Assembly (NCBI GenBank): GCA_003559395.1
Contig: PWLL01000008.1
Coordinates: 292 to 32,291, forward strand
Direction of reading: 5' to 3'
Source: Candidatus Iainarchaeum sp.
Lineage (GTDB): Archaea > Iainarchaeota > Iainarchaeia > Iainarchaeales > CSSED10-239
Length of the DNA stretch: 32,000 bases
The notes under the pieces are model-generated. The model did no database searches. It saw nothing but the letters and a program-made list of their open reading frames with translations, and was not told where the DNA came from. Each line of letters starts with the position of its first letter. Position 1 is the first letter of the stretch. This document shows positions 4,075 through 30,801 of this stretch, one piece after another. The position numbers and the translations under genes are program-made.

Positions 4075-4076
4075 GG

Positions 4077-6790: not shown

Positions 6791-7021
6791 TTATTGTTTA
6801 CGCCGTAACCTATCCTTAAAAAAAACTTCTTCTATTGGTAGGTTGAATATATCAGCTATTTTTTTTGCTTCTGATAGAGTAAACTCAGCTTGGTTCGTTT
6901 CTTTTCTGCTATAAGTTTGTTTGACTATGCCGAGCTTCTTGGCCATTTCATCTTGCACTATTGAGCGTTCAATACGCAGCGCTCGTAGTCTATTGGTATT
7001 AATTTCAACCAACGCATTCAA
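6791..7021 (-). CDS. XRE/Cro-type HTH transcriptional regulator, first gene of the early operon
   Basis: LRALRIERSIVQDEMAKKLGIVKQTYSRKETNQAEFTLSEAKKIADIFNLPIEEVF is a typical HTH_3 (XRE) domain. The track start (TTG at 7021) abuts the SD GAAAGGAG. The in-frame TTG at 7012 (9-nt spacer) may be the real start. Confidence 0.8.
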   Translation of the reverse strand: MNALVEINTNRLRALRIERSIVQDEMAKKLGIVKQTYSRKETNQAEFTLSEAKKIADIFNLPIEEVFFKDRLRRKQ

Positions 7022-7043
7022 CTCCTTTCTGTTAATTTGTTAT

Positions 7044-7072
7044 ATTATAGTATAAAAACACTATGAAGTCAA
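7044..7072 (-). promoter_or_regulatory. Sigma-70/sigma-A type early promoter
   Basis: The minus strand reads TTGACT (7072-7067), an exact 17-nt spacer, then TATAAT (7049-7044). It is preceded by an A-run and lies about 20 nt upstream of the SD of the XRE gene. Confidence 0.65.
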
Positions 7073-7147
7073 GGCTTTTTTTAACTAAATTAAATAATAT
7101 ATGGTTTAGATCATGGTTTGTGTTAATCAGGATCGTATCATATGCTC

Positions 7148-7209
7148 CTAAAAGACAAAAGACAACCCCAAAAAACAAAAGATAACCCTAAAAGTCAAAC
7201 AAAAAAACC
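7148..7209. repeat. Three tandem 20-21-bp imperfect A-rich repeats (iteron-like)
   Basis: CTAAAAGACAAAAGACAACCC / CAAAAAACAAAAGATAACCC / TAAAAGTCAAACAAAAAAACC. On the minus strand the core is GGGTT(A/G)TCTTTTG. The array sits between the late terminator and the early promoter. Confidence 0.35.
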
Positions 7210-7230
7210 GCCAGTCATATAAACTGGCGG
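7201..7230 (-). terminator. Rho-independent terminator ending the late/lysis operon
   Basis: The minus strand reads CCGCCAGT-TTATATG-ACTGGCGG (perfect 8-bp stem) followed by TTTTTTTGTTTG. It lies about 120 nt downstream of the endolysin stop. Confidence 0.75.
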
Positions 7231-7349
7231 CCACAAATCAAAATATCCATTCTAAGGGGTCTGACAGACGATTTAAGAAGTGTTGGTATGATATACCAGG
7301 CCCCTACTATAAAACTGCGATATTACCCCGGTTTTGTGGGCCGGTTTTA

Positions 7350-8156
7350 TCACTTTTTGAATCTGCCGGTGATATTCTTAAATGTTACCCACAACTCCAT
7401 TATTTTTTCAATAGAATTCATTAAAACGTCTTTTTTTACTGGTATCGGGATAAAGTTTTCAAGAAGTTTATAGGCAACTCCTGCCATACCGAGTACCAGA
7501 TTCCGTTTCGCTTCTCCGCCACCTTCTTCTGGACCTGCTTGTTCTGCTAACTCAACCCATTTCTCTATTTTATCAGACAATTTTCTGACGCCATCTAGTA
7601 TAGAAGGAAGAGAAGTGAGGATTTGGGTAATCTGGGTAACCTTAGCTAACATGTTTATGTCCTCCTTGTTTTCTTGTATGGGTTCCGGCGCAAGGTCTAA
7701 CAGATTGCGTTCGGTCATAATACTTACCAGTTTTCTTGCATACTCAGGATCGGTTGCATATCCTGCTCTCTGTAGTTCCTCTGCAAACTCCACCGGATCG
7801 GATATCTCCCAGAGTTTACTGTATCTCTTGTTTCTTTTCAAAAACCGTTTATGATCCTCAATACTTTCCTGATAGTTGTTATATTTACGAAATCGTTCAT
7901 CTTTTACCAGAACTCTTTCGCCATTTATATATTCGTGGGTATCAATTACCACATACTCGTGCTCAGAACTGTTATGCCATTTGATACCGAAAAGGTTATG
8001 ACTATACTCACCTGTATATTTATCCGTAGGAACATATCGACCCCATCCGGTCTCAAGGGCCGCCTTTGCAATAATCACCGCCGCAGGAATTCCGTGCTCA
8101 CTTTGGATATCAAGAGCAGGTTTTTTCACCCTTTTTATAAAATTGTTAGCGACCAA
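7350..8156 (-). CDS. Endolysin: N-acetylglucosaminidase (FlgJ/LytD-type glucosaminidase domain) with an unassigned C-terminal 100 aa
   Basis: IPAAVIIAKAALETGWGRYV ... HNLFGIK ... FRKYNNYQESIEDHKRFL ... LQRAGYATDPEYARKLVSIM reproduces the hallmark blocks of the mannosyl-glycoprotein endo-beta-N-acetylglucosaminidase domain. Confidence 0.85.
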   Translation of the reverse strand: MVANNFIKRVKKPALDIQSEHGIPAAVIIAKAALETGWGRYVPTDKYTGEYSHNLFGIKWHNSSEHEYVVIDTHEYINGERVLVKDERFRKYNNYQESIEDHKRFLKRNKRYSKLWEISDPVEFAEELQRAGYATDPEYARKLVSIMTERNLLDLAPEPIQENKEDINMLAKVTQITQILTSLPSILDGVRKLSDKIEKWVELAEQAGPEEGGGEAKRNLVLGMAGVAYKLLENFIPIPVKKDVLMNSIEKIMELWVTFKNITGRFKK

Positions 8157-8171: not shown

Positions 8172-8588
8172 TTAACGCAGATTACTAATTACCAATTGTA
8201 TGATCCCCAGAACAACCATGCACGCCGACAATCCTATTCCCAACCATTTAGCGAGTTCTTTTTTGATTTCTTTTTCCATTTCGTTCATGTTTTTTATTGT
8301 ATTGGCCTCTCTTTCCATCATAGTTGTATATATTTCTTTGAAACCTTTCTCCACCTTTTCCTTCAATCGATCATGAGCCGCCCAGGTAGAAAGTTTTTCT
8401 TTTTGTAGCGCCGACTTATGTAGCCCCGCTTTTATTTCTTTAATATCCGTTCTCATTTCTGCAATTATCTCGTCCAACAATTCGCGTCTTGTTTCGTCTT
8501 TTGCTCTCCATTCTGAAATTGTTCTGATTATGCCATCCATTTGTTCTACAGTATTTTTTAGTTTGTTGTGTTCTGGACAGCGCTCCAA
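8172..8588 (-). CDS. Holin-like lysis protein: coiled-coil N-terminus with a single C-terminal TM helix (XhlA-like topology)
   Basis: 138 aa. Charged helical N-terminal region, then WLGIGLSACMVVLGIIQLVISNL at the extreme C-terminus. Lies immediately upstream of the endolysin. TTG start 6 nt after GGGGAGGG. Confidence 0.45.
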   Translation of the reverse strand: MERCPEHNKLKNTVEQMDGIIRTISEWRAKDETRRELLDEIIAEMRTDIKEIKAGLHKSALQKEKLSTWAAHDRLKEKVEKGFKEIYTTMMEREANTIKNMNEMEKEIKKELAKWLGIGLSACMVVLGIIQLVISNLR

Positions 8589-8659: not shown

Positions 8660-11600
8660 CTATTCTGCAAAAAGCATCAATGCTCTTTGCACCGATTCAT
8701 CAGTAACGTAAGGTCGAGCCTCGCCGCTTCTTTGCGCTCCGGTAGCATCTACTCCGAGTTGTATCAGTATATTAGCATAGTGTTCCGCTTCTTCCCGGTC
8801 GCCGCGATCTACCGCGTTCCACAGATTCCCGTAATATTCAGTACGCAGTTTAGATACCGCCTGTTTTTCCTGTTCGGCAGGATCCAGGCCATTAAGTACA
8901 GCAGCTTCATCTAACTGTTGTTTGAGACGTAACAGCTGACTGCCTGGTGCTATCTGCTGGTATGTTCTCTGCCACCAGCTCGGGTCTACCCTGGCGCGCC
9001 AGAGGTCCTCATATCCCTTCTGGGCCTGCCACCAACCCATCCCACGACGCATAGGCATTGTAAAAGCAAAGTTATTACCACGCAGGGAGAAGGGTACGAA
9101 CTTCTCGTAGACCGCCCTTACTCTTTCGTCCATCTCCTGGTAGAAAGGCATATCTCCTTCTCGCCAGGGCATAGGCCAACCGCCCGGTCCGGCTTGAGTT
9201 CCGGTCGTTTGTTCTAAGGCAGTTCTTACTACCGGACTAAACTTTGAACCAAACAGGTATGTTATAGGATCATCGAAATACCGTAGTATCTCTCTGGCCT
9301 GTTTACCTGGAGCTGCGTAGTACCTTCGTTCATCATCGGGATCGTAAGTACCAATAATCTTTCGCGCAGCATGGATTATTGGTGTAACGTCTATATCTGT
9401 TCTTCTTCCAGGTTCATTCTCCCAGGCCCAGCGTCCGGTTAGTGCTCTGTTGGCGATATTAATTGCTGCTAACATACTGATCAACATTGATATCCAGTAT
9501 CGGGCACCAAATTTGCGCACAACAGGGTCCTTGTTCTTTTTAAATGGAAGGTTCTCATATAGCGTTCTACCGAAGATCCGCATATTAGTATAGGTATAAT
9601 CAGGAGATAGCCACAATAATTTCATTGCCTGTCTTACTCGCGGGGTAGCCCAGAAATGAGATTCCCATTCCTGACCGCCGAAAGCATCGTTTACCATCCT
9701 TGCCACTTCTTCTTTTATCTCTCGTATTTTCTGTGGCGAAGCATCTTTAGCGTTCACTTTCTGATCAGAAAGTGCTTCTTTAGCCCATTCGTAATAGGTG
9801 ATAGCTTTAAGACCAGCATAATATTCATTCCACAGCTTTCTATCATACCACTCATTAGCCTGCCGCATTTTACGCACCAGACTTCCGGCACCAGGAATTT
9901 TTCTGGTGTGAGCTTCTAATTTTCGCAGGTCCTGGTTTATGCGGCGCATATGAGCATCAGGTATGGGATCGAATACTACACCGTGCATTATAGCATCCCT
10001 GAGTGCTTCCGGGGATCCACTTATCAGGTCTAATCCCAGTTGATGGGTCCTGCGAATAACAGCAGACTCATCAACTTCTTTAACCTCTTCTCCTACTGTA
10101 AAGAATCCGCGTAGGGGTTGAGTTATTTTTGCCAATGCGGCCTGCGCACTCTCGGTAAGATTCCAGAAGTGAAAACCGCTCAACTTTAAAGACAGACCTT
10201 TTGCATACGCGTTGAAAGCCTCTATAATCTGTAGCGGTTTCCAATGGAAAGGCTGTTCAAAGACCTGTTTGGTAATTTTATATGCCTCCGGGTCAACCGC
10301 AGCCTTACCTTCCCATAGTATTGTAGTGCCGTCTCTGGCCTGTCTCGCGTAGTATTTATTTATAGCCGGATGATCAACAAGCGGCCAGTGTGGAGGAGCC
10401 TGATTACTCTTTTGAATTATCGGTTCGCCTTCATCATTAGCGATTTTAGTTAATTCGTGGACGAAGGCCCTGTTAAGCGCACCCTTCCAGTTCAGTTCGT
10501 GCCAGAGATAGTGCAGTTCTGCTATGTTCTGGGTGCGCGGAACCAAACCTGCCTCCACAGCATCTTCCAGTGTAGGGATGGTTCTCTGCATAGCACTCGG
10601 AACGCGTTTAGTCCATCTGTAAGCAAACTCTTTAATTCGCTTAGGTTTGTTCTCATAAAAGTGCAGCAGATAATCTTCAAGGTATGTTACATACTCTTCA
10701 TCACCAACAACCTCACGCATAAAACGGTTCAGGTCCTGTCTTGCTTTTTCCTGAAAGTACCTATACTCCGCTAATGCCTGCCGCATTTCAGGGGTAAGTT
10801 CTTCTTGTATTTCTTCAGCGGTTTTGCCAGTCCTGATATTTTTAACTTCTTCAACGGCAGCACCCATATCCTCAAGCTGTTCTTCGGTAAACCGTGCTGA
10901 CCAATCTATCTTCCTATAGCCAGCCTCGATCTGCCGTAACCTGAACAACCTAGACCAAGATTTAATGATCGTTTTTACATTATCCTTATAATCATCAGTT
11001 AGATACTCGCTGGGGAGCAAACGCTCAACTTCCTCAATAGGCCGTATCGCAGAAACATCTATCTTCCTTTTCATTTCATGCCGTTTCTGAATGATGTCCT
11101 GTATCTTCTGATGTAAGTCAGGGTTCTGCCTGATCTGCATGTCGAGGCCCTGCGCTACATCTGGTGCTAAATTGCGAGCCATTTCAGTGTTGAGGAGATA
11201 CATTGTATAGAAGTCGGCCATTAATTCGGTATGTTTGTTCCGGTATCTGTCCAGTTCGCCCTCTTCCGGCGGTCTTACCTGTTTAGCAACCGCCTTTAAC
11301 TGTTCCCTTAACTCCATCTCTCCAACTTCAAGATCCGGGAACCGTTCTTTAATGCTGGAAGGATATTGGTTGTTATTTATCCTGTAATCAATTACATGAG
11401 CTACTTCATGGCCGAGAGTTTCAAGGTTAGTAACATCTCTGGTCTCAATACGCTCGTCACCACCAATATCAGTGAACCGTGCAGCTGCCTTAGTCCGAAG
11501 TCCAGTGTACCTCGCTGGAGCCGCAAGTTCTGCGGCCAAAGAAAAGACCTCGACCATGAATTCATCAGGTACGGGGTCAATGTCCAGCCGTTCTTCTATG

Positions 11601-14600
11601 CGGTACATCTCTTCTATCGGCTCGGAATCGGGTGGAAGCATCTTAACTATATTCAAATTATGTTTGGTTAAGTCTTGAAGTGTCGGGAGTGCTCTTTCTC
11701 CTACCGGAACGAAGTATCTAGTATTGTACTGGATAATTTCACTGATTAACCCTGCGTCAAGAAGTTGCTGGCGGTTAGTTGTGAGATCCGGTCCAGCATC
11801 CTTCTTGAGTTCTATACGATAATCACCGGAGACAGTGCTTCTTTGTAATATCCAACTATTATCAAGCATAGCTTTCCAATTCTTATCAACAATTCTACTT
11901 GGTACTGTGCTAATATCGATCTCCTCTAAATCACGACTAGCACCGAGACGTTCAAGGACATTATCGATCTCTTTCTCACTTATAACTCTGCCGAGGATGG
12001 TTTCTCCCTCTTCGGTGAGAGCACGTTTAACTTCGATCTTGCTTGTAGGTAGTTTATCCCAGATATCAAGCAGGGCTCCGGTTATCATGTGAACTGTCTC
12101 TTCTTCATACTCTGGTAGTTCAGCAACCTGTTCATCCCAAAGCTGACGCGCAACATCTTCTGCTGTCATATCAGGATCTGCTGGTTCTTTAATGGTGTTT
12201 TCATCTTCGTAGCGGGGGGAGAGGCCGGCTCTATCAATCCCCTTATTTATTGCCTCTTTTGTTTTCTCGATACCCAGACGCCTAACAGTATTCCTGGCAT
12301 CTTCTATTGCTCGTAGTTCGTTGCTGCCATCTCCCAACTTAGCCCCTGATTTTCCTTCGGTAACTATATACGCCATCTGACCGGAACGGCCTGGATGAAC
12401 GAAGGCGTCTATATCCTCAAATCCTTCAATCTCTACCTCTTTGCCATCCACGGCGACAAACTCTTTTCCATCATGTACGAAGTATACATCTTCTTCTACC
12501 GTTATTATCTCCCAGGTGCTCTCGCGAAACTGGTCTTTTTCAAGAGGTCTCCCTCGTCCGGGCCTCTGGTCGATTAAGCGTACCATCTCAACCACTTCAC
12601 CAGACTTCTTGGTACGGGTGCCTGCTTCTACCGCAAGAACAATGTTTTTAGATCGTTGGTTTTGGAAGTAACCTATATGTCGTTCAAGAAAGGCGGGGCC
12701 TCCGTCTCGGAAGTCTGCACGAGTATGGTCGAATGTTATGGGATATACCTTATTCTTGACATTGAGCTTAATGTACCGAGTATCAGCAGCATCGTCTCTC
12801 TCTACTACGGATCGATCTTCGACAGCCTCGGTAATATCTGCGTGTAGGTTTTCAGTGCCCTTGTCTACTTCTCCGGCCTCTTCTGCTCGCCCATAGACCT
12901 CATTATGTTCTACCTCGAAGGCTTCAAAGACCTGGTTCTGTAAGTGTGGCTCTAACCCTAATATTCTGTTAAGGAATTTCTTGGTATCTCTCAGCTCATC
13001 AGTATCTTTAAGGTTGCCTTCATCTGTAAGAATGTCGTCTTTTATGCCCATTCTTTCTGATATAGTAGATAACCCTTCGTCAATAAACTCATACTCATCA
13101 TTGGAAAGGTTAATATACATTTGCATCAGAGCATCTCTCGCAAAAGGACTGCTCAGATCGTCCTCATTATGGAACAATCCAGAACTCTCAGCCCCACGCT
13201 CCCCGCGCGATAGTGCCCCAAACTCATTAAGACGTTGAGCAACGGTTGAGAGGAACCGTTTTTCACCTTTGAGGTTAGTAGTAACCAAAATGTATTCCGG
13301 AGGTTGTTTTTGGAATGAACGGTGAGTCCGTCCAAACCCCTGGAATACCTCTTTAACGTCCCAGCTTGGCTCTAAGAGATAATGTCTTCTTAATCTTTGG
13401 TTCTTGAAATTTAAACCCGCATGATAGTCAACACCGGTATTGCCGATCTTGCTGAACAGCAGTATATGCTTTTCGTCGTCAAGAAAACGCCTAACCTCTT
13501 CCTGGACATACCCTGTTCCTCTGGTGTCTATATATTTGTTACCTTCCTCATCCTCCAAGACGCGTTCTTTGCGTCCTGTTATTTCAGAGACTCTATCTTT
13601 ACCAAAAGAGTCTACCAACATATCAATCGGTGACTTAGGAAGCCTTACACCGCCCAGGTGAGCAAGCAATTCGTTCTTTAAGCGTACTGCTTCAGGGTCT
13701 TTCACCGTATTGCCTTCGCTATCACGAACGGGTGTCCATACCGTTCTTGTCTTTCCGTCCTCTGTGGTAATTTTTACGGGTTCGTATTTCGTTGTCGGAA
13801 AGGCGCGTTCTACATAATCCATAATCATACTGGTTGGAGATACGTTAAAGTCCTGCAAAGACATATCAGGATCAGTACGGATACGCTGTAACTCTCTGCC
13901 CATAGAGGCTTCTCCTGTTTTATCTACCTGGATAACCGGAGCGTAACCCTGTTCTAAATCTTTCTCAATGCTCTCTATGAGAGTTGGCATTTTCATGGCT
14001 GTAAGCAGATCGCTCCAAAATCGCTGGTAAGTACCGTAAAACTGTGATTTTGCGGCCCTTTTTGCCTGGGGTGATTCCCCCGCCCCTGTTGATTCCATAG
14101 CCGCGGACATGTTTTGAAAGAGGATCTGCCACGCTTCAGCAGCCACGTTATACTGCTGTATTTGTTCTTCTGTCAGCCGGTGTTCTGTGTGGTCATATTC
14201 AATTCCTTCGTAGCTGATCTGTCGAGAAAGGTAAGCACCTTTTTGTTTGGAGTCGCGGGCAATAAGCTCCATACCGCCTAACCCGCTTGCGGATATCTGT
14301 TCAACGAAATCCTCCATGCTGGCAAAAGGTGTTCCCTCGCCCCACAGGCCAAGGCGTTCAGCATAGGCAAGCGTTTCTGGGTCGTCAAATGCTGTAGCTG
14401 ACGAATACTCTATTCGTGCTTCCGGGAAGGCCTCTTGTAATCGCAGACCGGCCATGGCCTGTAGGCTAGGTTCTTTCTCAATTCCAGAAGCGTTCTGCAT
14501 CTTATGTGATTCGTCAAAGACAATTACCCCGTCGAAATCATCGTCAAGCCATTCCATAAGCTGTTCTAAACGTGTTTGTTCCCCTTCGGGCACAATCCTT

Positions 14601-17600
14601 CGTGTTCCATATCCATCACCGGCTGGCTCAACACTATATCCTCCGCGTATCATTGAATATGTTGTATAGAATATGCCATGATCAGGGTCCAGTTCATCGT
14701 TTTTGCTATAATCATTCTGGGCATAAAGTATATCTTCTGACATATGTTCAGGATCGTGCTGGCCAACATCGCGTATATCCCTTTTGGCGGCCTCGTGCAT
14801 ATCACCCCAACTGGCACTAATCCATACCGCTTTATCTCGACCCTGGCGGAGATTATCCAGTATTATAGCTGCTATAGTACGCCCCTTACCGGTACCTGTG
14901 CCATCACCGATCATGTGTCCCTGCCTCACCCCAGAGGGGAGCATTTTCTGGTGAGATTGACCGGCATACACCACGGCTTCTAGCTGTGATTCGCTTATAT
15001 CACCGGATTCTATTAGTTCTTTTGGCAAGTCTGGAGCATAGGTTATGTCTGGCGGTTCTGAGTCTGCCATAGCAGCCGTTTCCGATATCTGCGCCGGATG
15101 TTCCTTTGCTCCCTCTACCTTCAGTTTGGATGGCTTATACTTGCCTGTAAAAATATTATCGCTTAGTTTTCCTCTTCTCTCGTCCTCTCGCTGCTCGACT
15201 CTGAGAGTGCTATCAGTTCGGTCAGGCTCGTTACCCGATTCGAGCTTATCAGGATCGCCAGGTCCTCTAACAGCCGGATGGCGGCTTCCCTTGGGTTTTG
15301 GTCTTGCATCATCCTGAGAAGGTCCCGTCGGTTCCCCAGGTCGAGGTGCTTCAACAGGAGGTTCAACCTCTGGGACGGGCTCATCAGGTCTAACATCTGG
15401 AACGTCTCGGACAGGTTCATCTCTCTCATCCCCAGGGCGAACGGCCACGTCGGGCCGGGTCTCAGGTTCATCCCGAGGTGGAGCAGGTTCACCAGGTACA
15501 GTTCGGATACCGGGTCGCTCTTCGGATGGTAATCTATCAGGTTCTTCTGGTACGCCTGGTTCAGGATCTGGAGGGCTAACTGGTTCTCTGGGATCAGGTT
15601 CAACTGATATATGTTTGCGATCTTCTTTCACTCCCCTCAACATGGGCACGGCCTGTCGTACATCTTTGACCTGCCCCGTTACTGGTGTTTCTGTAGTTGG
15701 ACCATCCTTATCAATAACGACAAGCTGAACACCAAAAGAAGTTCCGTATTTACGATACTCGCTGCCGTCTATCCCTATATTAGCCCTAACATTGTACCTT
15801 TCCTGTATATCCTCCCACCATTCTCTGTGCGCGGGTTTATCAAGTGCCATCCCTTCACCCAGGATAGCTACCAACCTGCCATCATCACGAAGGAGTTTAA
15901 GAGCTTCCTCCATATGGCTTCGAACATTACGGGTATCTCTAACGCCCTCTAATCTACCTGCAGTCGACGAAAACGGGGGGTTCATAACCACAAGGGAAGG
16001 CGGTTCTATTTTATCATGAAGTATTGCGTGTAAGTGCTCTGCATTTTCAGTATACACCGCATCGAATCCCATTTCACGCAATATATTAGCGCGGCGGTCG
16101 GATAATTCGTTGACCATAACCTGCTGGACTTGCATGCCCTTTGGGAAAACAGCCAGCCCGCCGATTCCTGCACTGGGTTCTAATACTATATCCTGCTTCA
16201 TTATAGAGGCTGCCCAGTTAGCCAGGTAAGCAATGTTCGGCGGAGTAGAGAACTGCTGGAACTCTACACCCTCACCGGTGCGTTTGGTTTGAGTAGGAAT
16301 CTTATCTAAAATATCTTCCTGGATTCGATTCAAGACTTTTACTGCATGGGTATAATCTATATTCCTGTGTGTTGGAAACCTGCCTGGGTGTGAAAGTATA
16401 TATTTATTAATACCTAGCTCCATAGCATCATAAGCGTCTTTAGGGGTATATACTCCTTCGGCCTGTGTTCCCTGGTAAGCGGTATCTGCTATAGCGAAAA
16501 GGTCACGCCAACTAAACGAACGGCCTTTTTCTAGCATATCATGAACACGACCAGCAATATCTGTTTCTGGTAAGCGAGCTTTTGCTTTAGTGGGGTCTGT
16601 TGTTGGTTCATCGTCAGGCTTAATACGCAAGTCCTCTATAGCTGGCCTGCCGGTAGCTTCTTGTGTGAGTACAAACCGCTGTGCATCTTCGAGTGAACGG
16701 TGGTGTCCTATAACCTGTAACGGTCTCTTGAAATCATCCCCTGGGGTTTCGGCACGCAACCGGAAAGGTGTATCTGCTATCTTAGTGTCAGTGGTATCTC
16801 TATCCCTTACATCAACTATACTCCAGGGGGTGCCTGGCAGAGTCCATATTTTGCCACCGAGAACAGGATCAGGAACCTCTGTCCATTCTTCTGTGTCGGC
16901 TGGTTCTTCTGGTTCGAAAGCATCCTTAAAGCGCTCTCTTAATTCTTCTAATTGCCGTTTTTCATCTAAACTAGCCACCCTATCCGCTCTCAGCTTTTCG
17001 TCAAGAGCTTCCATGATCATATCGGCTTGATCAAAAAGCCCCTGGCGAAGAAGTTGCTCGTTCAGTTCTTGCATACTGCCAATATTTAAAAGAGCATCTG
17101 TCTCTGGTACGTCTGCAAGTTGTGGATCTCTAGTTACATCTACACTCTGCATAATCCTCTCGTGTTCTGCTTCGCTATCTATACGAAGATCCTTAAACCG
17201 TTCAAATTCCTGCGGGGTAATGTGCTTTAAAACCTCTGTGCGGAATTCTTCCGGGTCCTGCATTTCGTACATGGCTGTTCCTTCAAGCAGATCGATTATT
17301 ACACTGGCATCACCATAAAGCCATATAAGTTTTTCGCCGGTCCACTTAATAGCTTCGTAATCATCTTCCAATACCTCTGATAGTACCCAGCGGTTAAGCG
17401 GAAGAGATACATCCGGTGCATGATCGCCAGTAAGCGGGAATTCCGTCATAACAGGTTTAGGACCGGGAACGATTTCAGATACAGACGCAACAGTGGGTTC
17501 CTCTTCTTCCACCGGAGCTTCTTCTACCATAGTCAACCTGCCAGGACTAACACTTTCAACCCTTTCAACAGGACGACCAGCAACCATCGATATCTGGTCA

Positions 17601-19606
17601 ACATGAACGCTAACCATAGTACCTAAACCCTCATAATCAATAACACTTCTTACGGTACCAGTCAACTCTTCTCCTTCTGGAGTGGTCCATGATACGCGGT
17701 CTTCTCGTTTGAATGTAGGTGCTTCAACAGGTTCTTCCGGGGGTATCTCTTCTAACCGTTGTTCCAGATCGTCTATCATCTGGTAATCCCTCTGAACAGC
17801 TCCTACCCCACCAATCACAGGCGTTCCTGCTGCTTCTGCTTGTTCTGCCTGTTGAAGTTTTTCTTCAAGGCGTTGTTTAATTTGTCCTATATCTTCTGGA
17901 GTTAAATCTTCCAGAGGCTTATCTACTGATATGGTATGGAATGGTGAATCCTCAACCACTTCAGGAGGTTCTACCGTGGGAGCGTCAGGCATAGGTGCAG
18001 AAGGTGTTTCTACAGTAAGACCTTGCGGCCCCTCAACTATACGGAAAGGCCCTGTCGGTCCTGTTGATATGGCCGGAGTAGGTATTTCCATAGTAGTCGG
18101 GATAGTAGGTTGTACCTGTTGCGGCATATCAGGAGCAGTCGGTACCCCATAAGGCGCCGCTTGAGTAGCCGGCGGCGATATCTCCATACTGGGATCCGGT
18201 GTGGTTCCTGCGGGCCAGGCGAATTGAGTTCTTTGTACCTCTTGTTGTACCCCTTGATCTACCTGCTGGGTTGCCACTTGTTTGGCCTGTGGTGACATAT
18301 CGCTGCTCTGGATCATATTATAGGCGGTGTCCCTTGCTATCTGAAGTTCTTTAAACTTTTCAGGATCTCCACTGGGCACATCAGGGTGTAATGTTTTTGC
18401 AATATGCCTATAGGCACTCTTTATCTGATCCCGTGTTGCCGTCTCTGGCAGTCCCAGTACAGAAAAGGCTCTACTTCTTATCTCCTGCTCCCTTACTACA
18501 TCACTGCGGGTGGCTTCTGCTTCCTGTCTTAACCTTTCACGGTAAGCGTTTAGCTTGCGTTCTATGGTCTCAGCATCATCCCCAGGACTTATACCAGCAT
18601 CCGCAAATATCTTTTTCCGGTTATCGCGGGCTGCATGGAATGTTTTATGTACCCGGTTAATCTCTGCCTTATCCTGCGGAGATAGTGCTGCTGTGTTTAC
18701 CAGTCCGAGAATAGTAAGGCCAACCACAGAGGAACCCATATCCATAAGATCCAAAGGTTCTCTTTCGTCTGGGGGAGTTAATGCCCTTCTTGTTACCTCA
18801 GAAGCGGTTACTCCTGCCGGTGCAGAAATTAAGGATCTGGTCAGGCTTTGCGCATATGGATATAACTGATCCGGTACGCTTGTAGGAAGTTCTTGCGCTA
18901 ATCGCCCGGCGTAAGGAGCAACAGCACCCATCGCACCACCAAAAGCCAATGAGCTTGCGAAGTCTGCTGCGGTAGGCCGGTGTTCTTCGGGCATACCTTC
19001 AAGTTCCATTCCTCGTATGCCAGCGAAACGAGCAGCTCCACGGGCCGCACCACTCAATGCCTCGGGCGTCTGTGCTGCTCTAAGCGCAAGTTCAGGAGCA
19101 TACCTCGCTCCTGCATACCCCAGGGCCTGTGTTCCGGCCTGGGTAAAAGGTCCCATAAGCTTTAATCGTCCCAACCAACCGGCGGTTGATCCCAGGGTGT
19201 GCATGGTCTGATCGATTCTTTCATCACCAGTTGTAGAATAAGTACCCTGGCGCCTTTCTACTACTCCCGGCTGCATACCATAACTCTCCTGCCAGGCTTC
19301 CGAGAACCGGCTGAGAGCTGCATCTACACCAGGAGCCACCCTTCCTACCCATGTATCTTCATCAGTAAGAAACCTGGTTACAGGTTGTTTAATCTTTTCT
19401 ATCTCCTGCATCAGCAGAGGATTGTGTCCTACCCAGTCTATGGCCCGTTGATATGGAGTAGAAGGTGTGAACCCCGTATCTTCTGCCCACGATGCAATCG
19501 CGGCCCCGGGTGTTTGTGGGGCCGTAGCTTGCGGGTCCTGAGCTTGTGGGCTGGTGGGGGTAGGTTGTTGTTCTTGCCATATATTTGCAAACGGGTTAGT
19601 TGCCAT
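8660..19606 (-). CDS. Giant 3,648-aa polyvalent virion/ejection protein (J-domain + N6-adenine MTase + Strawberry-notch/SNF2-like helicase + HExxH zincin + TM-containing C-terminal region)
   Basis: Uninterrupted 10,947-nt ORF. The SD GGAGG lies inside the last codons of the upstream gene. Motifs are listed as separate sub-features below. It is the last structural gene before the lysis cassette. Confidence 0.9.
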   Translation of the reverse strand: MATNPFANIWQEQQPTPTSPQAQDPQATAPQTPGAAIASWAEDTGFTPSTPYQRAIDWVGHNPLLMQEIEKIKQPVTRFLTDEDTWVGRVAPGVDAALSRFSEAWQESYGMQPGVVERRQGTYSTTGDERIDQTMHTLGSTAGWLGRLKLMGPFTQAGTQALGYAGARYAPELALRAAQTPEALSGAARGAARFAGIRGMELEGMPEEHRPTAADFASSLAFGGAMGAVAPYAGRLAQELPTSVPDQLYPYAQSLTRSLISAPAGVTASEVTRRALTPPDEREPLDLMDMGSSVVGLTILGLVNTAALSPQDKAEINRVHKTFHAARDNRKKIFADAGISPGDDAETIERKLNAYRERLRQEAEATRSDVVREQEIRSRAFSVLGLPETATRDQIKSAYRHIAKTLHPDVPSGDPEKFKELQIARDTAYNMIQSSDMSPQAKQVATQQVDQGVQQEVQRTQFAWPAGTTPDPSMEISPPATQAAPYGVPTAPDMPQQVQPTIPTTMEIPTPAISTGPTGPFRIVEGPQGLTVETPSAPMPDAPTVEPPEVVEDSPFHTISVDKPLEDLTPEDIGQIKQRLEEKLQQAEQAEAAGTPVIGGVGAVQRDYQMIDDLEQRLEEIPPEEPVEAPTFKREDRVSWTTPEGEELTGTVRSVIDYEGLGTMVSVHVDQISMVAGRPVERVESVSPGRLTMVEEAPVEEEEPTVASVSEIVPGPKPVMTEFPLTGDHAPDVSLPLNRWVLSEVLEDDYEAIKWTGEKLIWLYGDASVIIDLLEGTAMYEMQDPEEFRTEVLKHITPQEFERFKDLRIDSEAEHERIMQSVDVTRDPQLADVPETDALLNIGSMQELNEQLLRQGLFDQADMIMEALDEKLRADRVASLDEKRQLEELRERFKDAFEPEEPADTEEWTEVPDPVLGGKIWTLPGTPWSIVDVRDRDTTDTKIADTPFRLRAETPGDDFKRPLQVIGHHRSLEDAQRFVLTQEATGRPAIEDLRIKPDDEPTTDPTKAKARLPETDIAGRVHDMLEKGRSFSWRDLFAIADTAYQGTQAEGVYTPKDAYDAMELGINKYILSHPGRFPTHRNIDYTHAVKVLNRIQEDILDKIPTQTKRTGEGVEFQQFSTPPNIAYLANWAASIMKQDIVLEPSAGIGGLAVFPKGMQVQQVMVNELSDRRANILREMGFDAVYTENAEHLHAILHDKIEPPSLVVMNPPFSSTAGRLEGVRDTRNVRSHMEEALKLLRDDGRLVAILGEGMALDKPAHREWWEDIQERYNVRANIGIDGSEYRKYGTSFGVQLVVIDKDGPTTETPVTGQVKDVRQAVPMLRGVKEDRKHISVEPDPREPVSPPDPEPGVPEEPDRLPSEERPGIRTVPGEPAPPRDEPETRPDVAVRPGDERDEPVRDVPDVRPDEPVPEVEPPVEAPRPGEPTGPSQDDARPKPKGSRHPAVRGPGDPDKLESGNEPDRTDSTLRVEQREDERRGKLSDNIFTGKYKPSKLKVEGAKEHPAQISETAAMADSEPPDITYAPDLPKELIESGDISESQLEAVVYAGQSHQKMLPSGVRQGHMIGDGTGTGKGRTIAAIILDNLRQGRDKAVWISASWGDMHEAAKRDIRDVGQHDPEHMSEDILYAQNDYSKNDELDPDHGIFYTTYSMIRGGYSVEPAGDGYGTRRIVPEGEQTRLEQLMEWLDDDFDGVIVFDESHKMQNASGIEKEPSLQAMAGLRLQEAFPEARIEYSSATAFDDPETLAYAERLGLWGEGTPFASMEDFVEQISASGLGGMELIARDSKQKGAYLSRQISYEGIEYDHTEHRLTEEQIQQYNVAAEAWQILFQNMSAAMESTGAGESPQAKRAAKSQFYGTYQRFWSDLLTAMKMPTLIESIEKDLEQGYAPVIQVDKTGEASMGRELQRIRTDPDMSLQDFNVSPTSMIMDYVERAFPTTKYEPVKITTEDGKTRTVWTPVRDSEGNTVKDPEAVRLKNELLAHLGGVRLPKSPIDMLVDSFGKDRVSEITGRKERVLEDEEGNKYIDTRGTGYVQEEVRRFLDDEKHILLFSKIGNTGVDYHAGLNFKNQRLRRHYLLEPSWDVKEVFQGFGRTHRSFQKQPPEYILVTTNLKGEKRFLSTVAQRLNEFGALSRGERGAESSGLFHNEDDLSSPFARDALMQMYINLSNDEYEFIDEGLSTISERMGIKDDILTDEGNLKDTDELRDTKKFLNRILGLEPHLQNQVFEAFEVEHNEVYGRAEEAGEVDKGTENLHADITEAVEDRSVVERDDAADTRYIKLNVKNKVYPITFDHTRADFRDGGPAFLERHIGYFQNQRSKNIVLAVEAGTRTKKSGEVVEMVRLIDQRPGRGRPLEKDQFRESTWEIITVEEDVYFVHDGKEFVAVDGKEVEIEGFEDIDAFVHPGRSGQMAYIVTEGKSGAKLGDGSNELRAIEDARNTVRRLGIEKTKEAINKGIDRAGLSPRYEDENTIKEPADPDMTAEDVARQLWDEQVAELPEYEEETVHMITGALLDIWDKLPTSKIEVKRALTEEGETILGRVISEKEIDNVLERLGASRDLEEIDISTVPSRIVDKNWKAMLDNSWILQRSTVSGDYRIELKKDAGPDLTTNRQQLLDAGLISEIIQYNTRYFVPVGERALPTLQDLTKHNLNIVKMLPPDSEPIEEMYRIEERLDIDPVPDEFMVEVFSLAAELAAPARYTGLRTKAAARFTDIGGDERIETRDVTNLETLGHEVAHVIDYRINNNQYPSSIKERFPDLEVGEMELREQLKAVAKQVRPPEEGELDRYRNKHTELMADFYTMYLLNTEMARNLAPDVAQGLDMQIRQNPDLHQKIQDIIQKRHEMKRKIDVSAIRPIEEVERLLPSEYLTDDYKDNVKTIIKSWSRLFRLRQIEAGYRKIDWSARFTEEQLEDMGAAVEEVKNIRTGKTAEEIQEELTPEMRQALAEYRYFQEKARQDLNRFMREVVGDEEYVTYLEDYLLHFYENKPKRIKEFAYRWTKRVPSAMQRTIPTLEDAVEAGLVPRTQNIAELHYLWHELNWKGALNRAFVHELTKIANDEGEPIIQKSNQAPPHWPLVDHPAINKYYARQARDGTTILWEGKAAVDPEAYKITKQVFEQPFHWKPLQIIEAFNAYAKGLSLKLSGFHFWNLTESAQAALAKITQPLRGFFTVGEEVKEVDESAVIRRTHQLGLDLISGSPEALRDAIMHGVVFDPIPDAHMRRINQDLRKLEAHTRKIPGAGSLVRKMRQANEWYDRKLWNEYYAGLKAITYYEWAKEALSDQKVNAKDASPQKIREIKEEVARMVNDAFGGQEWESHFWATPRVRQAMKLLWLSPDYTYTNMRIFGRTLYENLPFKKNKDPVVRKFGARYWISMLISMLAAINIANRALTGRWAWENEPGRRTDIDVTPIIHAARKIIGTYDPDDERRYYAAPGKQAREILRYFDDPITYLFGSKFSPVVRTALEQTTGTQAGPGGWPMPWREGDMPFYQEMDERVRAVYEKFVPFSLRGNNFAFTMPMRRGMGWWQAQKGYEDLWRARVDPSWWQRTYQQIAPGSQLLRLKQQLDEAAVLNGLDPAEQEKQAVSKLRTEYYGNLWNAVDRGDREEAEHYANILIQLGVDATGAQRSGEARPYVTDESVQRALMLFAE
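9437..9496 (-). other. Predicted transmembrane helix in the C-terminal region of the giant protein, aa 3371-3390
   Basis: WISMLISMLAAINIANRALT is flanked by basic residues (RKFGARY ... GRW). A second hydrophobic segment, SSVVGLTILGLVNTAAL, lies at aa 291-308 near the N-terminus. Confidence 0.4.
11207..11539 (-). other. HExxH zincin-like metallopeptidase motif region inside the giant protein, aa about 2690-2800
   Basis: LETLGHEVAHVIDY (HEVAH aa 2733-2737, nt 11396-11410), with a downstream E in HTELMADFY as a possible third ligand region. This is a motif-level call only. Confidence 0.45.
13187..14995 (-). other. Strawberry-notch/SNF2-like superfamily-2 helicase module inside the giant protein, aa about 1538-2140
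   Basis: Walker A GDGTGTGKGRT (aa 1567-1577), motif II VFDESHKMQN (DESH aa 1698-1701), motif VI FGRTHRSFQ (aa 2091-2099). These are followed by YILVTTNLKGEKRFLSTVAQRLNEFGALSRGER, which closely parallels the Strawberry-notch C-terminal block. Confidence 0.8.
15197..15604 (-). other. About 135-aa Pro/Glu/Asp/Arg-rich disordered linker between the MTase and helicase modules
   Basis: EPDPREPVSPPDPEPGVPEEPDRLPSEERPG ... DEPETRPDVAVRPGDERDEPVRDVPDVRPDEPVPEVEPPVEAPRPGEP. The DNA is a degenerate reiteration of GAACCTG-type units. Stops are depleted in several other frames on both strands here. Confidence 0.7.
15737..16309 (-). other. N6-adenine DNA methyltransferase domain inside the giant protein, aa about 1100-1290
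   Basis: FQQFSTPP, then motif I VLEPSAGIGGLA (E1143), then motif IV VVMNPPFSS (NPPF aa 1209-1212, nt 15971-15982). The order and spacing are typical of amino-MTases. Confidence 0.8.
18308..18478 (-). other. J-domain (DnaJ/Hsp40 N-terminal domain) inside the giant protein, aa 377-433
   Basis: RSRAFSVLGLPETATRDQIKSAYRHIAKTLHPDVPSGDPEKFKELQIARDTAYNMI. The invariant HPD is at aa 407-409 (nt 18380-18388), with a basic helix II and an F/KEL helix III. Confidence 0.8.
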
Positions 19607-19609: not shown

Positions 19610-21931
19610 TTAACCTCCAATTACACTATATATATCATCGAAGGTGACCCCTGGGGGTAACGCTTCCTCGAATTCATCTCTTATTGCCGGCGAGATAGCT
19701 TCCAGGTAATAAAGTAGCTCTTCGATATCGTTCAATGTACCATCCCTAACCAAGACTGTTTCCAGGTTAGACGCAATCATATCAGCAGCGAAACCTTCCT
19801 GCCCTGCTACCTGCGGGACTATATTCGGCAGTATGCTTCTTACATAACTGGCTATCTCTCTATCAGCATCAGGATCGCCTTGCGCCTGGAACGTGAGATC
19901 ATCATCCAGTGCCGCTTCTGCGGGTTCCTCAACCGGTGTCATATCTTCTGCCTGCTCGGTTGGTTGCGGAGCCATACCAGGTTCTGGAGTTGGTACCTCT
20001 CCAGGTTCGGTAATCTCTTCCGTTCCCAGAGCTTCGTCAACCAGGTCTACCTGAGGCAATCTATCTTCATAACCTACTGGCCGTTCAAAGGCTTCTTCAT
20101 GAGTAGGTATACCGCGAGTTTCTTGTGGTGGACCGGCTAATGTCGTTGTCGGTCTATCCACCGGGGTAGGCCCTGCTTCTGGCTGAAGGTCCATACCCAT
20201 TACAGCATCAACATCGCGTTGTTCTCTTTGTCCTAAGCTCGGATCCTCATCATAAATAGCCGCAAGTATTTCATCAAACGGCACCTGATATGCTTCTTCT
20301 GTGGACTGTTTCTGTGCTTCTGACAGGCCCTCAAGTATGCGGATAACATCGTTTAGTGTGGCGTCCTGATATTGAGTGGTTACCGCAGTAATAATATCAT
20401 CTACCGCATAGGATACGTCCCCTTGATATTCTTCTGGTGCTGCCGGAAGTGGTGTTGCCTCTTCAGGTACCGTCTCTACATCTGGCACGACCTCTTCCTC
20501 TGTTATCTCAGGGGTCAGTCCAGGCATATCTAAAGCCGGATCCGGTTCAAATTCGGGATCCAGTTCAGGAGATACGGCCATTGGGTCTACCTCCGGCTGT
20601 GGCTGTGGGGTAGCTTCGGGAGTTATACCGTATCTTCTAAGGGCATCACCAACCTGCCCGAAATGCTGTCCGGCGCCACCACCCCAGAGTCTTCCCAGCC
20701 ACGAACCCTGCTCTTCCCCGACCATCTCTTCGGGAACAGGGGTACCATCTTCATAGACAGGTCCATACTCGGCATGGTTCCAGTACGGGAGCCCGGAAAT
20801 ATCTACTCCATCGCCCTCGGGATTCCAGCCAACAAGCTCTTGCAGTTCTTCTGGTGCAAGTACCGGCTGGGCCAGTGGATCTATCATCCCTTCTAGGTAC
20901 CCGGGATGAATCCAGTTACCTTCTTGATCGGAGTGCCATACGTTTCCATCTTCATCTTGATATCTGAATATAGGGCCAAACTGTGGGTGGTCTGTCCCTG
21001 TATATACGCCATCCGCTGGTGGTGGTGCTAATGTCATGGGTTGCGGTCCGAAATCGCCACCAAAAGCTCCCCACTGGTCCTGCGGTGCAAAACCCATACC
21101 CATAGTACCCTGCATGTTTTCATTAATAGTCCGTTCTCTTTCATTTAAAATGTTCTGTAGTTCTACTTGTGCGTTAATAAGATTTGCATTGGCCTGGTCA
21201 ATAGCTGACTGACTAACTCCAGCAGAGATCAGATTGTCACGTTCGACTTCCATAAGGTTAATGTTTTTTTTCATCATATCTGTTTCTAATTCAAGGTGGT
21301 TAAGACGATGTTGCTGTTCAGCTGGCATTATATTATCGAGATAATATCTATGCTCTCTAAGTCCCAGATCAATTTCTTCTACCTGTCTATCATAAAGCTC
21401 CCGATTATGTGCGTTTAAATCAGCCGCCTGTCTTACATCTAATGACGCTAGTTGATTGTGTAACCGCTGTTGCGCCTGCAATAATGGGCTCATATCCTGA
21501 AAGTGTTGTGTTTCGGCTGCTATCCCCTGTGCTGTGGCGTCCTGCACTCCGGTCAGGGAACGGGTATAATCTGCCTCTGCACCCAGTCCCTCCTGCCGTG
21601 CCAGACTTTCTCCGGTAACCAGCGGAGCATCGACAACACTATGACCGAAAAACTGTTGAAAATAAGCGGGATTAAATGCCTGCTCACCAAACATACCAGG
21701 GTCTACATCAATTCCTGCCCCGGATATCATCTGCTGAACCGGAATATCTTCAAATCCAGTTAAATAACGTGCTTCTTCTTCTAACATTCTATTCCTTAAA
21801 TCTGCTTCCTGTAGTGCGCGTTCCGCAAGCTCCTGATCGTCTCTAAATGTTTGCAACTGCATATAACGTCCAAAAGGATCCGCTTGCGCTAATCCGCTTG
21901 CGAATCCTCCAACGCCTGCTCTATAAGGCAT
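19610..21931 (-). CDS. 773-aa coiled-coil, acidic, low-complexity structural protein; internal-core/ejection protein by position (T7 gp15 slot)
   Basis: N-terminal Gly-rich MPYRAGVGGFASGLAQ. Long Q/N/E/L coiled coil at aa about 140-270. The C-terminal half is Pro/Glu-rich. Only 3 nt separate its stop from the giant gene start. The size matches T7 gp15 (about 747 aa). Confidence 0.5.
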   Translation of the reverse strand: MPYRAGVGGFASGLAQADPFGRYMQLQTFRDDQELAERALQEADLRNRMLEEEARYLTGFEDIPVQQMISGAGIDVDPGMFGEQAFNPAYFQQFFGHSVVDAPLVTGESLARQEGLGAEADYTRSLTGVQDATAQGIAAETQHFQDMSPLLQAQQRLHNQLASLDVRQAADLNAHNRELYDRQVEEIDLGLREHRYYLDNIMPAEQQHRLNHLELETDMMKKNINLMEVERDNLISAGVSQSAIDQANANLINAQVELQNILNERERTINENMQGTMGMGFAPQDQWGAFGGDFGPQPMTLAPPPADGVYTGTDHPQFGPIFRYQDEDGNVWHSDQEGNWIHPGYLEGMIDPLAQPVLAPEELQELVGWNPEGDGVDISGLPYWNHAEYGPVYEDGTPVPEEMVGEEQGSWLGRLWGGGAGQHFGQVGDALRRYGITPEATPQPQPEVDPMAVSPELDPEFEPDPALDMPGLTPEITEEEVVPDVETVPEEATPLPAAPEEYQGDVSYAVDDIITAVTTQYQDATLNDVIRILEGLSEAQKQSTEEAYQVPFDEILAAIYDEDPSLGQREQRDVDAVMGMDLQPEAGPTPVDRPTTTLAGPPQETRGIPTHEEAFERPVGYEDRLPQVDLVDEALGTEEITEPGEVPTPEPGMAPQPTEQAEDMTPVEEPAEAALDDDLTFQAQGDPDADREIASYVRSILPNIVPQVAGQEGFAADMIASNLETVLVRDGTLNDIEELLYYLEAISPAIRDEFEEALPPGVTFDDIYSVIGG

Positions 21932-28248: not shown

Positions 28249-28268
28249 AAAAACTTATCCTCCTAAAG

Positions 28269-30275: not shown

Positions 30276-30313
30276 TAATACTCACCTACGCTCATTTCTA
30301 CACGTTAAGATTA

Positions 30314-30664: not shown

Positions 30665-30683
30665 AATAATCCCTCCTATCACT

Positions 30684-30720
30684 AAAAAAATATAAACCTG
30701 GAGCTTGATTACCCCAGGCT
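30684..30720 (-). terminator. Intrinsic terminator-like hairpin plus U-run directly upstream of the SD of the next late gene
   Basis: The minus strand reads AGCCTGGGG-TAATCAAG-CTCCAGGTT (9 bp including two G-U pairs), then TATATTTTTTT, then immediately AGTGATAGGAGGGATTATTATG. Confidence 0.5.
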
Positions 30721-30736
30721 ATAAGGACCGGTTACA

Positions 30737-30764
30737 ATAATCTCACATGAATACAGGCAAACAA
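30737..30764 (-). promoter_or_regulatory. Weak candidate promoter just upstream of the 30684-30720 hairpin
   Basis: The minus strand reads TTGTTT (30764-30759), a 16-nt spacer ending in TGA (extended -10 TGn), then GATTAT (30742-30737). The match to consensus is only moderate. Confidence 0.25.
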
Positions 30765-30801
30765 CCTCACCTGACATTCCTGCTCTGTCTATCCGGCATC
30801 T

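Follow-up and report, generated by a model that had tools for sequence, protein, structure and literature searches.

A methyltransferase tethered to a Strawberry-notch-type ATPase within a predicted giant phage polyvalent protein

Introduction

Polyvalent proteins of phages and conjugative elements were defined as a class by Iyer, Burroughs, Anand, de Souza and Aravind in 2017 (PMC5512222). The third most common of their elements is the 'DNA methylase-helicase dyad', whose archetype is DarB and which was proposed to bind injected DNA and to methylate it during translocation; 'in a few instances' the ATPase of the dyad is Strawberry-notch-like and has a winged helix-turn-helix (wHTH) at its C-terminus, a Methylomonas protein being cited (PMC5512222). 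The Dar proteins of phage P1 are taken into the head at packaging and are co-ejected (PMC12810830), and podovirus giants of Burkholderia phage Bcep22 and Agrobacterium phage Atu_ph08 (gp21, 4,877 amino acids, aa) have been described as 'DarB-like' (PMC6630229). The means by which such dyads shield incoming DNA have been a matter of debate since the 1980s, and are still called undefined (PMC11109961). The subject here is one giant open reading frame (ORF) with a dyad of the Strawberry-notch (Sno) type. It lies in a stretch of 32,000 nucleotides (nt) from Candidatus Iainarchaeum sp. (GenBank assembly GCA_003559395.1, contig PWLL01000008.1, positions 292 to 32,291 of the forward strand), called the window below and numbered from its first letter.

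The ORF (8660..19606, minus strand, 3,648 aa) unites in one chain a J-domain, a methyltransferase (MTase), a Sno ATPase and a conserved HExxH domain, and such joining of unrelated domains is what marks the polyvalent class. It has the architecture of a dyad, an adenine MTase (aa ~1017-1334) standing N-terminal to a superfamily 2 (SF2) ATPase (aa 1471-2252). The domain identities and the class membership are held with high confidence. The overall reading that we favour, and consider probable though by a good way short of secure, is that of a virion-delivered polyvalent protein in which a tethered methylase and a Sno translocase would protect entering DNA.

The methyltransferase

A first-pass annotation, made by a model from the letters of the window, had read 13187-16309 as an MTase, a disordered linker and a Strawberry-notch helicase core. 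These positions correspond to aa 1100-2140 of the giant. Motif mapping placed every quoted motif where it had been said to be, all of them within the single ORF, and motifs, Pfam, PHROGs and structural models agree on the presence of the three parts in one polypeptide. Within the MTase, FQQFSTPP (motif X) lies at aa 1116-1123 (nt 16238-16261), EPSAGIGG (motif I) at aa 1143-1150 (nt 16157-16180) and NPPF (motif IV) at aa 1209-1212 (nt 15971-15982), which on a Rossmann fold is the gamma-class order X (F-x-TP), I (SAGxG), IV (NPPF). QQFS, SAGxG and NPPFS are invariant among 37 MTase-Sno homologs. The PHROGs families matched are phrog_9133 (5.5e-20) and phrog_6263, 'DNA methyltransferase' (3.2e-13), and to judge from its sequence the domain represents a divergent subfamily. 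A phmmer search of Protein Data Bank (PDB) sequences with the dyad returned nothing, and with the family profile weak MTase matches and none for the helicase.

An AlphaFold2 model of the MTase, made from the family alignment, has a predicted local distance difference test score (pLDDT) of 90 and a predicted template modelling score (pTM) of 0.89. Its top Foldseek matches in the PDB are the type I HsdM structures 3ufb, 2okc, 7eew and 2ar0 (EcoKI), PacII (7vru), M.BseCI (7qw7) and TaqI (2adm), with E values from 3.5e-10 to 3e-7, and BpuSI is also among the best. RNA m6A/m2G enzymes (METTL5, PH1948, Trm11, TrmM) also match the model, at lower rank. A separate target-recognition domain is not seen in it.

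That the substrate of the enzyme is RNA or a protein (for instance rRNA or tRNA of the host, or some host factor), which would turn the module into a host-takeover effector, we think very improbable. Homologs do carry the name 'predicted RNA methylase' from a JGI source, PH1948 and an RNA MTase head the weak matches in the profile search of the PDB, and METTL5, Trm11 and TrmM are among the structural matches. However, the best of the latter are DNA N6-adenine MTases of type I/II restriction-modification (R-M), and matches of PADLOC, a source of defence-system models, are to R-M/MADS-type DNA MTases. The fusion of the MTase to a double-stranded DNA (dsDNA) translocase fold, and the exchangeability of its position with that of a DarB-type DNA MTase dyad (see below), also speak for DNA.

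The Strawberry-notch motor

The annotation had called the motif VI region almost a template of the Strawberry-notch C-terminal block. This was borne out, as the region (aa 2092-2137, nt 13196-13333) falls within a match to Helicase_C_4 (PF13871) of E 7.2e-69, covering aa 1993-2252 and profile positions 2-270 of 271. The first lobe matches AAA_34 (PF13872) with E 3.4e-101 over aa 1502-1820 and profile positions 1-305 of 306; its Walker A sequence, GDGTGTGKG, is at aa 1568 and DESHK (the DExH motif) at aa 1698. GDGTGxGK and DExH are invariant in 37-49 homologs, SAT too is invariant, and QGxGRxHR is so in 37. There is in addition a marginal ResIII match (1.9e-4). By its sequence the helicase is unambiguously of the Strawberry-notch type, and its model has a SWI2/SNF2-clade fold. 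A helical insert separates the lobes (Table 1), and helical inserts of SWI2/SNF2 type have been described (PMC5512222).

A model of the motor together with its C-terminal extension has a pLDDT of 83, with low values at model residues 904-949, within the extension. The nearest structures by Foldseek are SWI2/SNF2 dsDNA translocases, with E values between 4e-12 and 1e-9: CSB (4e-12), Chd1, Mot1, ZorD, SsoRad54, RapA and ISW1. In BFVD, the matches include one viral protein fragment at a template modelling (TM) score of 0.71, a helicase of Emiliania huxleyi virus 86 (E 3e-39) and an Aureococcus virus helicase. The part of the extension at aa 2451-2683, modelled as alpha/beta units, aligns at 28% identity with the C-terminal extension of a plasmid Sno protein. 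A beta-rich stretch of ~100 aa (aa ~2372-2474; ~12185-12493, minus strand) lacks a counterpart in the alignments with the plasmid protein and with P0001, the best database match (see below), and appears to be a lineage-specific insertion, modelled with low confidence.

On one alternative the translocase supplies the essential activity: it would strip host DNA-binding proteins or restriction complexes off the DNA as it enters, or help to draw the genome in, with the MTase as an accessory that binds DNA or regulates, or as a minor contributor. No part of the module is larger or better conserved than the ATPase (column identity 0.65), the solved folds nearest to it include the protein-displacing translocases Mot1, RapA and CSB, and the MTase model is without a target-recognition domain. 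Two further proteins, P0142 and P0143, resemble the Sno ATPase and the C-terminal part of the giant and not its MTase by BLASTP, and Pfam finds no MTase in P0142. Yet the catalytic motifs of the MTase are invariant in the 37 homologs, which argues for selection on catalysis, and coupling of MTase to helicase is near-universal in the family and recurs in the unrelated DarB-type dyad (PMC5512222). A motor-led function is unlikely in our estimate, though it is the alternative to which we give the most weight.

Couplings of MTase with helicase also occur in type I/III R-M systems, ZorD (the SNF2-type ATPase of Zorya) is among the structural matches, and the mad2 model of MADS matches the MTase (2.3e-9). 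A defence or competition device in the manner of R-M or DISARM, one that labels self DNA and keeps rival elements out, might on these grounds be considered. Its probability is close to negligible: neither a nuclease nor any other effector domain turned up in the module or beside it, no PADLOC helicase model matches, and the gene lies within a virion operon, in a giant protein of virion type. Identification as a known defence system was rejected, PADLOC on the module matching MTase models only.

The linker

The two enzymatic parts are joined by a disordered tether (Table 1) in which proline makes up 26% of residues, and proline, glutamate, aspartate and arginine together 63%, as against 31% in the whole protein. 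About 85% of its residues are disorder-promoting. A linker was found in all 37 family members examined, at 64-173 aa (median 127), and has a column identity of 0.30 as against 0.61 and 0.65 in the flanking domains. From its retention throughout the family, its variable sequence and its richness in disorder, it follows that this is an old, maintained flexible tether and not a shuffling junction.

The linker DNA had been described as a degenerate GAACCTG-type reiteration, open in several frames, that looked like a recombination-prone joint between modules. The enrichment is genuine and local: GAACCTG occurs five times within 15412-15601, and nine times in the whole window where 3.35 are expected by chance. 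The spacing is irregular, though, and all five copies are in frame as GAA-CCT-G, encoding Glu-Pro-X, so the 'repeat' consists of re-used Glu-Pro codons. TRF reported no tandem repeat in the linker DNA, and a repeat search found there only degenerate 19-mers (67-79%) at irregular spacings that are multiples of three. Of the six frames, two are open throughout and another two are broken by one stop each, an effect of composition, T being nearly absent from codon position 1 (3%). A 146-aa ORF that overlaps the linker in a second frame (15163-15603, minus strand) is explained by the same T-poor codons and is most likely not a gene. As for the joint, MTase, linker and Sno part always travel together, the linker being inside a unit that moves whole, and with the repeat results this led to rejection of the idea that the linker DNA is tandemly repeated or a hotspot of recombination.

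Boundaries and distribution of the module

The conserved MTase-linker-Sno span, with the C-terminal extension of the Sno part (SnoC), runs from aa ~994/1017 to ~2650/2683 (nt ~11.56-16.63 kb), boundaries on which three comparisons agree: with a Methylomonas plasmid protein, with P0001 plus the small ORF after it, and with 80 IMG/VR loci, where matches stop at about aa 2650. On these alignments the real unit is larger than 13187-16309 and is one self-contained mobile module, compact (~1,650 aa) and with clear boundaries. The same span matches the full length of common stand-alone 'strawberry notch family' proteins of ~1,450-2,000 aa. Its shuffling junctions lie at about aa 1017 and about aa 2660-2690.

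Plasmids carry the module in numbers. Matches were found in 686 plasmid records, 320 of them conjugative plasmids, and for 409 of the 686 the match spans 80% or more of the dyad, with identities of 37-45%. Alignment with MTase-helicase giants of conjugative elements, which the annotation had proposed, succeeded with the Methylomonas sp. LL1 plasmid protein WP_230874547.1 (3,236 aa), homologous over the whole module: there the module comes first and is followed by ArdC-N, MPTase-PolyVal and DUF5710, with identities to the giant of the window of 49% in the MTase, 42% in the helicase and 28% in the C-terminal extension. Its gene (L001:8755-18465) comes directly after traJ-traI-T4CP-traF-topoIII-traD (T4CP, type IV coupling protein). 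This slot we take to be that of the transferred TraC primase of IncP plasmids.

In a database of 5.8 billion proteins the best match is P0001, at 44% identity. In its phage-like contig (L003:10001-14873) the module is a separate gene of 1,474 aa; the final ~130 aa of its Sno C-terminal extension come from the next ORF, of 153 aa, and a 984-aa LPD38 protein follows. Window aa 2474-2659 align with the end of P0001 plus that next ORF, and the P0001 gene is on this alignment split or frameshifted. A look-up of the giant itself by exact sequence gave no public contig on record.

With the family profile, at least 224 viral contigs of IMG/VR proved to carry the module; a scan with the single sequence gave nothing, so that the profile was needed for detection. 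Complete carrier ORFs number 57, with a median length of 3,938 aa and a maximum of 6,165 aa, and 55 of them exceed 2,500 aa; in 54 the module lies inside the chain, over 300 aa preceding and over 300 aa following it. These giants adjoin genes of portal, 'virion structural protein', 'internal virion protein' and tail-fibre families, and one of them (L008) also bears PBECR3 and LPD38. A few distant syntenic matches connect the window with the IMG/VR loci. Jackhmmer searches with the N- and C-terminal flanks of the window's module against 80 viral giants gave no matches.

Searches of GenBank phages (50,697 records; E<=1e-5 for tblastn) had a different outcome. Megablast of 12000-17000 found no match, and in tblastn with the dyad only the MTase part was matched; the Sno ATPase was matched in none of the records, and P1 was not among the matches. 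Nothing was matched by the C-terminal 949 aa, the sole match of the N-terminal 1,000 aa was the J-domain in Atu_ph07, and the 631-aa protein encoded upstream had one weak match, in a Bacillus phage. Phages of the Bcep22/Atu_ph08 type were matched by neither the dyad, the C-terminus nor the N-terminus.

The C-terminal chassis

The dyad is followed by a ~960-aa part, here called the chassis, which begins with a zincin-like HExxH domain (Table 1). An exhaustive HMMER search with the C-terminal 989 aa gave 1,062 representative proteins of 700-4,300 aa (E<=1e-3). The chassis is always C-terminal, a median of 14 aa separating the end of the module from the C-terminus of the protein. In 45 homologs the H, E and H of its motif are conserved in 100% and the D in 98%, and E2794 in at least 90%. 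It belongs to no Pfam family; PF18818 was not matched, and a weak match to ATLF (the anthrax lethal factor zincin) had E 0.013. It may be the virion-anchoring or processing part of a large family of giant phage proteins.

Among GTDB species-representative genomes it is rare, being present in seven loci of metagenome-assembled genomes (L086, L087-L092), among them Gemmatimonadales (46% identity), Planctomycetes and Marinimicrobia, which hints at environmental, non-enteric hosts. The closest relatives (41-49% identity), themselves giants of about the same length, have no Sno module and share the chassis part only. A scan of 13 chassis giants found an SNF2-type ATPase in seven and a Sno-type one in three; other cargo in chassis giants consists of ddrB-ParB, RadC/JAB, GGDEF, MutS_I and DnaJ.

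DarB: homolog or analog

The first-pass annotation had called the MTase 'DarB-like' and had proposed profile searches against both the DarB and the Strawberry-notch families. Strawberry-notch homology was confirmed in these (AAA_34, Helicase_C_4); that to DarB was not. BLASTP of the dyad against P1 DarB gave a best E of 0.49, and hhalign of the family profile against DarB a probability of 9% (E 0.0036), in the generic SF2 C-lobe only. P1 DarB has by Pfam N6_Mtase/Eco57I with SNF2-rel_dom (1.3e-10), ResIII and Helicase_C (3.3e-6), where the giant has AAA_34 and Helicase_C_4 in place of the SNF2-rel_dom/ResIII and Helicase_C of DarB-type ATPases. With these results and the different Pfam families, homology of the window's dyad to DarB was rejected, and its nearest relatives are the MTase-Sno proteins of plasmids and integrative conjugative elements (ICEs). 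The annotation of such proteins is thereby corrected: they are Sno-type dyads of polyvalent proteins and not DarB homologs.

Sister chassis giants tell the other half of the story. At about the position of the window's dyad, P0122 and P0125 have an Eco57I-type MTase with an SNF2/Helicase_C ATPase, and the dyads of sister giants match P1 DarB with E values of 2e-26 (P0122, which served as positive control), 1e-20 and 2e-12, so that they are by sequence bona fide DarB homologs. Comparison of the homologous chassis then shows a non-homologous replacement of one cassette, Sno-type or DarB-type, by the other. The two types are probably functionally equivalent, and the best available argument for an equivalent job is that these unrelated dyads are interchangeable cargo in one protein family. 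A second, non-homologous dyad in the same slot of a homologous giant provides comparative evidence on what dyads do.

Proposed delivery with the DNA

Genes upstream of the giant match 'virion structural protein', 'internal virion protein' and tail-fibre families and adhesin-type domains, and the giant itself is encoded at the end of this virion/tail gene block, a context characteristic of the polyvalent class. Its start ATG at 19606 has GGAGG 7 nt upstream, with the stop codon of the upstream gene 3 nt off. Given this spacing and the adjacent stop the start is credible, and the arrangement predicts translational coupling to the upstream gene. The annotation's idea that the pair is delivered pre-made with the DNA is plausible, by virtue of the virion and tail-lysis gene context and of the neighbours of viral homologs.

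The giant might instead be made late and act in the producing cell, methylating progeny genomes before packaging, in the manner of an orphan phage methylase, or aiding replication or recombination, with its place in a late operon incidental. A recombination module (RecT, SbcC-like) is nearby, and the window has no recognisable packaging helpers of the DarA/Hdf type. Several considerations nevertheless make this quite improbable. The giant gene is, by the arrangement described, translationally coupled inside the virion/tail block; portal, internal-virion and tail genes are the consistent neighbours of viral homologs; chassis relatives bear ddrB-ParB, a domain of a P1 head-packaged protein; and plasmid homologs are in transfer operons, in the slot of known transferred proteins, and fused to ArdC-N/MPTase (PMC5512222).

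On the favoured reading the giant would be packed into the virion and be ejected along with the DNA. On entry the Sno ATPase would load on the incoming dsDNA genome and track along it, and the flexible tether would allow an MTase that has no target-recognition domain to get at adenines in cis and methylate them while the DNA moves by. As a further effect, restriction complexes of type I/III may be pushed off or blocked by the motor. The genome would thus be protected ahead of any phage gene expression. The HExxH peptidase may process the polyprotein (zincin peptidases have been proposed to process polyvalent proteins; PMC5512222), and the J-domain, if delivered, could recruit host DnaK. Delivery with the DNA seems to us rather likely on gene context and analogy; that methylation then serves anti-restriction, for which the same context and analogy speak, we hold tentatively, as a possibility that may well turn out otherwise.

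Several points weigh against the reading as a whole. The MTase falls under Pfam thresholds (for N6_Mtase an E of 0.26 and 11 bits where the cut-off is 20.4; MTS 0.067), and the good structural matches to METTL5, PH1948 and Trm11, seen with a model, make DNA less than certain as its substrate. No polyvalent-specific Pfam domain (LPD families, MPTase-PolyVal, PBECR, ddrB-ParB) reaches threshold in the giant; relatives do bear such domains, LPD38 and PBECR3 in the L008 giant and ddrB-ParB in chassis giants. The GenBank phage searches gave no cultured phage relative for proteome comparison. The archetype offers limited guidance, as the mechanism of DarB is itself undefined and DNA-mediated restriction alleviation was shown to confound plasmid-based assays of it (PMC11109961). 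We infer that the giant is packaged and ejected, that DNA is its substrate, that N6-methyladenine (6mA) is formed and that restriction is countered.

A bolder picture may be drawn, which as a whole we judge speculative and rather unlikely. The dyad would be a sequence-independent 'methylate-while-translocating' machine that enters with the genome and maybe powers or rectifies its entry, a plug-in interchangeable with the DarB-type dyad and used by phages and, through the type IV secretion system (T4SS) and the TraC-primase slot, by plasmids; a delivered J-domain would hijack DnaK and the zincin would cut the polyprotein, the whole making up a toolkit for the first minute of infection.

The second, non-homologous dyad in the slot of a homologous giant, together with the spread of the Sno module through plasmid transfer operons and hundreds of giants of uncultivated phages and its absence from the GenBank phage records searched, points to a strongly selected, portable protector of DNA on arrival that phages and plasmids share.

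Other parts of the giant and neighbouring genes

The features of the giant are collected in Table 1. Its J-domain is also matched by NCBIfam DnaJ models, and a second J-domain is present in one other giant with the same C-terminal chassis. The words 'DnaJ' and 'J domain' were not found in the 2017 survey of polyvalent proteins (PMC5512222). Apart from the J-domain the N-terminal 1,000 aa (16607-19606) have no homolog among the 5.8 billion proteins; aa 125-625 gave one weak match, P0221, at 24% identity. The N-terminal part has a hydrophobic segment near aa 285 and long stretches rich in proline, glutamate and glutamine.

Table 1. Features of the giant ORF, from its Shine-Dalgarno sequence to its C-terminus (window coordinates)
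Feature	Coordinates	Strand	Basis
Shine-Dalgarno GGAGG of the giant ORF, within the 3' end of the upstream gene	19614..19618	(-)	Sequence read
Giant ORF, predicted phage polyvalent (multi-effector) protein	8660..19606	(-)	ORF list and translation
J-domain with intact HPD motif, aa 381-425	18332..18466	(-)	Pfam DnaJ, E 1.3e-9, 38.4 bits (cut-off 27.8)
Pro/Glu-rich region, aa 426-1016, lineage-specific cargo or spacer	16559..18331	(-)	Without a match in Pfam or PHROGs
MTase unit, aa ~1017-1334: N-terminal helical domain and gamma-class (order X-I-IV) N6-adenine-type Rossmann MTase	15605..16558	(-)	Motifs, PHROGs, homologs, model
Disordered Pro/Glu/Asp/Arg tether, aa 1335-1470 (136 aa)	15197..15604	(-)	Composition, family alignment
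Sno ATPase lobe 1, aa 1471-1820: Walker A, DESH, SAT	14147..15196	(-)	Pfam AAA_34
Helical insert between ATPase lobes, aa 1821-1992	13631..14146	(-)	Kept in plasmid homolog; long helices in AlphaFold2 model
Sno ATPase lobe 2, aa 1993-2252, with motif VI QGFGRTHR	12851..13630	(-)	Pfam Helicase_C_4
Sno C-terminal extension, aa 2253-2674, end of mobile module	11585..12850	(-)	Plasmid, P0001 and IMG/VR alignments
C-terminal chassis, aa ~2675-3648, beginning with zincin HExxH metallopeptidase-like domain	8663..11584	(-)	HMMER family, no Pfam
HEVAHVID, putative zinc-binding/catalytic motif (H2733, E2734, H2737, D2740)	11387..11410	(-)	Conservation in 45 homologs

All the neighbouring genes mentioned here are on the minus strand. 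Upstream of the giant, 26125-31902 encodes three large probable receptor-binding or adhesin proteins: one with BspA-type leucine-rich repeats (366 aa), one with Ig-like, CarboxypepD_reg and macroglobulin-like domains (668 aa), and a beta-propeller protein whose C-terminus is of tail-fibre type (707 aa). Right after the giant, 8172-8588 encodes a coiled-coil protein of 138 aa whose C-terminus has a hydrophobic anchor and which may be a holin or otherwise lysis-associated, and 7350-8156 an endolysin (phrog_3513, 1e-49); these two mark the end of the late block. An ORF-poor stretch (7022-7349), which may form a regulatory border between modules, separates the endolysin from a 76-aa ORF (6791-7021) that by eye resembles an XRE/Cro-type helix-turn-helix regulator. 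The recombination module, at 3223-6041, has a RecT-like annealing protein (phrog_148, 9e-72) beside an SbcC-like ATPase/nuclease subunit (phrog_77, 3e-78).

Comparison with known systems

Like the giant of the window, P1 DarB (2,255 aa, head-packaged and co-ejected) has an N6-adenine-type MTase N-terminal to a SWI2/SNF2-clade ATPase, and it too is a large protein of the late/structural region of a phage. P1 differs in having the DarA/Hdf helpers, of which none is seen in the window. The Bcep22 and Atu_ph08 giants are likewise huge single proteins of the structural region, with methylase, helicase and others (cell-wall hydrolase, peptidase), but they are described as DarB homologs and not as Sno-type.

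Strawberry notch of eukaryotes is a transcriptional co-regulator. Eukaryotic Sno/SBNO proteins and the Sno-like helicases of giant viruses share AAA_34 and Helicase_C_4 with the giant, and no fused methyltransferase is recorded for these matches, unlike the situation in the window.

The closest counterparts are the MTase-Sno proteins of plasmids and ICEs, annotated 'strawberry notch family protein' or 'bifunctional class I SAM-dependent methyltransferase/DEAD/DEAH box helicase' (SAM, S-adenosylmethionine), for which, as for those of phages and other bacterial sources, no experimental work turned up in the papers searched. They have the whole MTase-linker-Sno-SnoC span, the catalytic motifs and a disordered linker of similar length, and there too the module can sit within giant multi-domain proteins. 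It is usually N-terminal or stand-alone (~1,450-2,000 aa) in plasmids, where ArdC-N and MPTase-PolyVal follow, whereas that of the window is in the middle of its protein, with ~1,000 aa including the J-domain before it and a different C-terminal chassis after it. Delivery from the window's phage would be by ejection, and that of the plasmid proteins by the T4SS.

The giant thus belongs to the described class of polyvalent proteins with methylase-helicase dyads and is not a new kind of system. What is new in relation to that class is where the module begins and ends, how abundant Sno-type giants are among uncultivated phages as against none in cultured ones, the exchange of Sno and DarB types in one chassis, and the J-domain.

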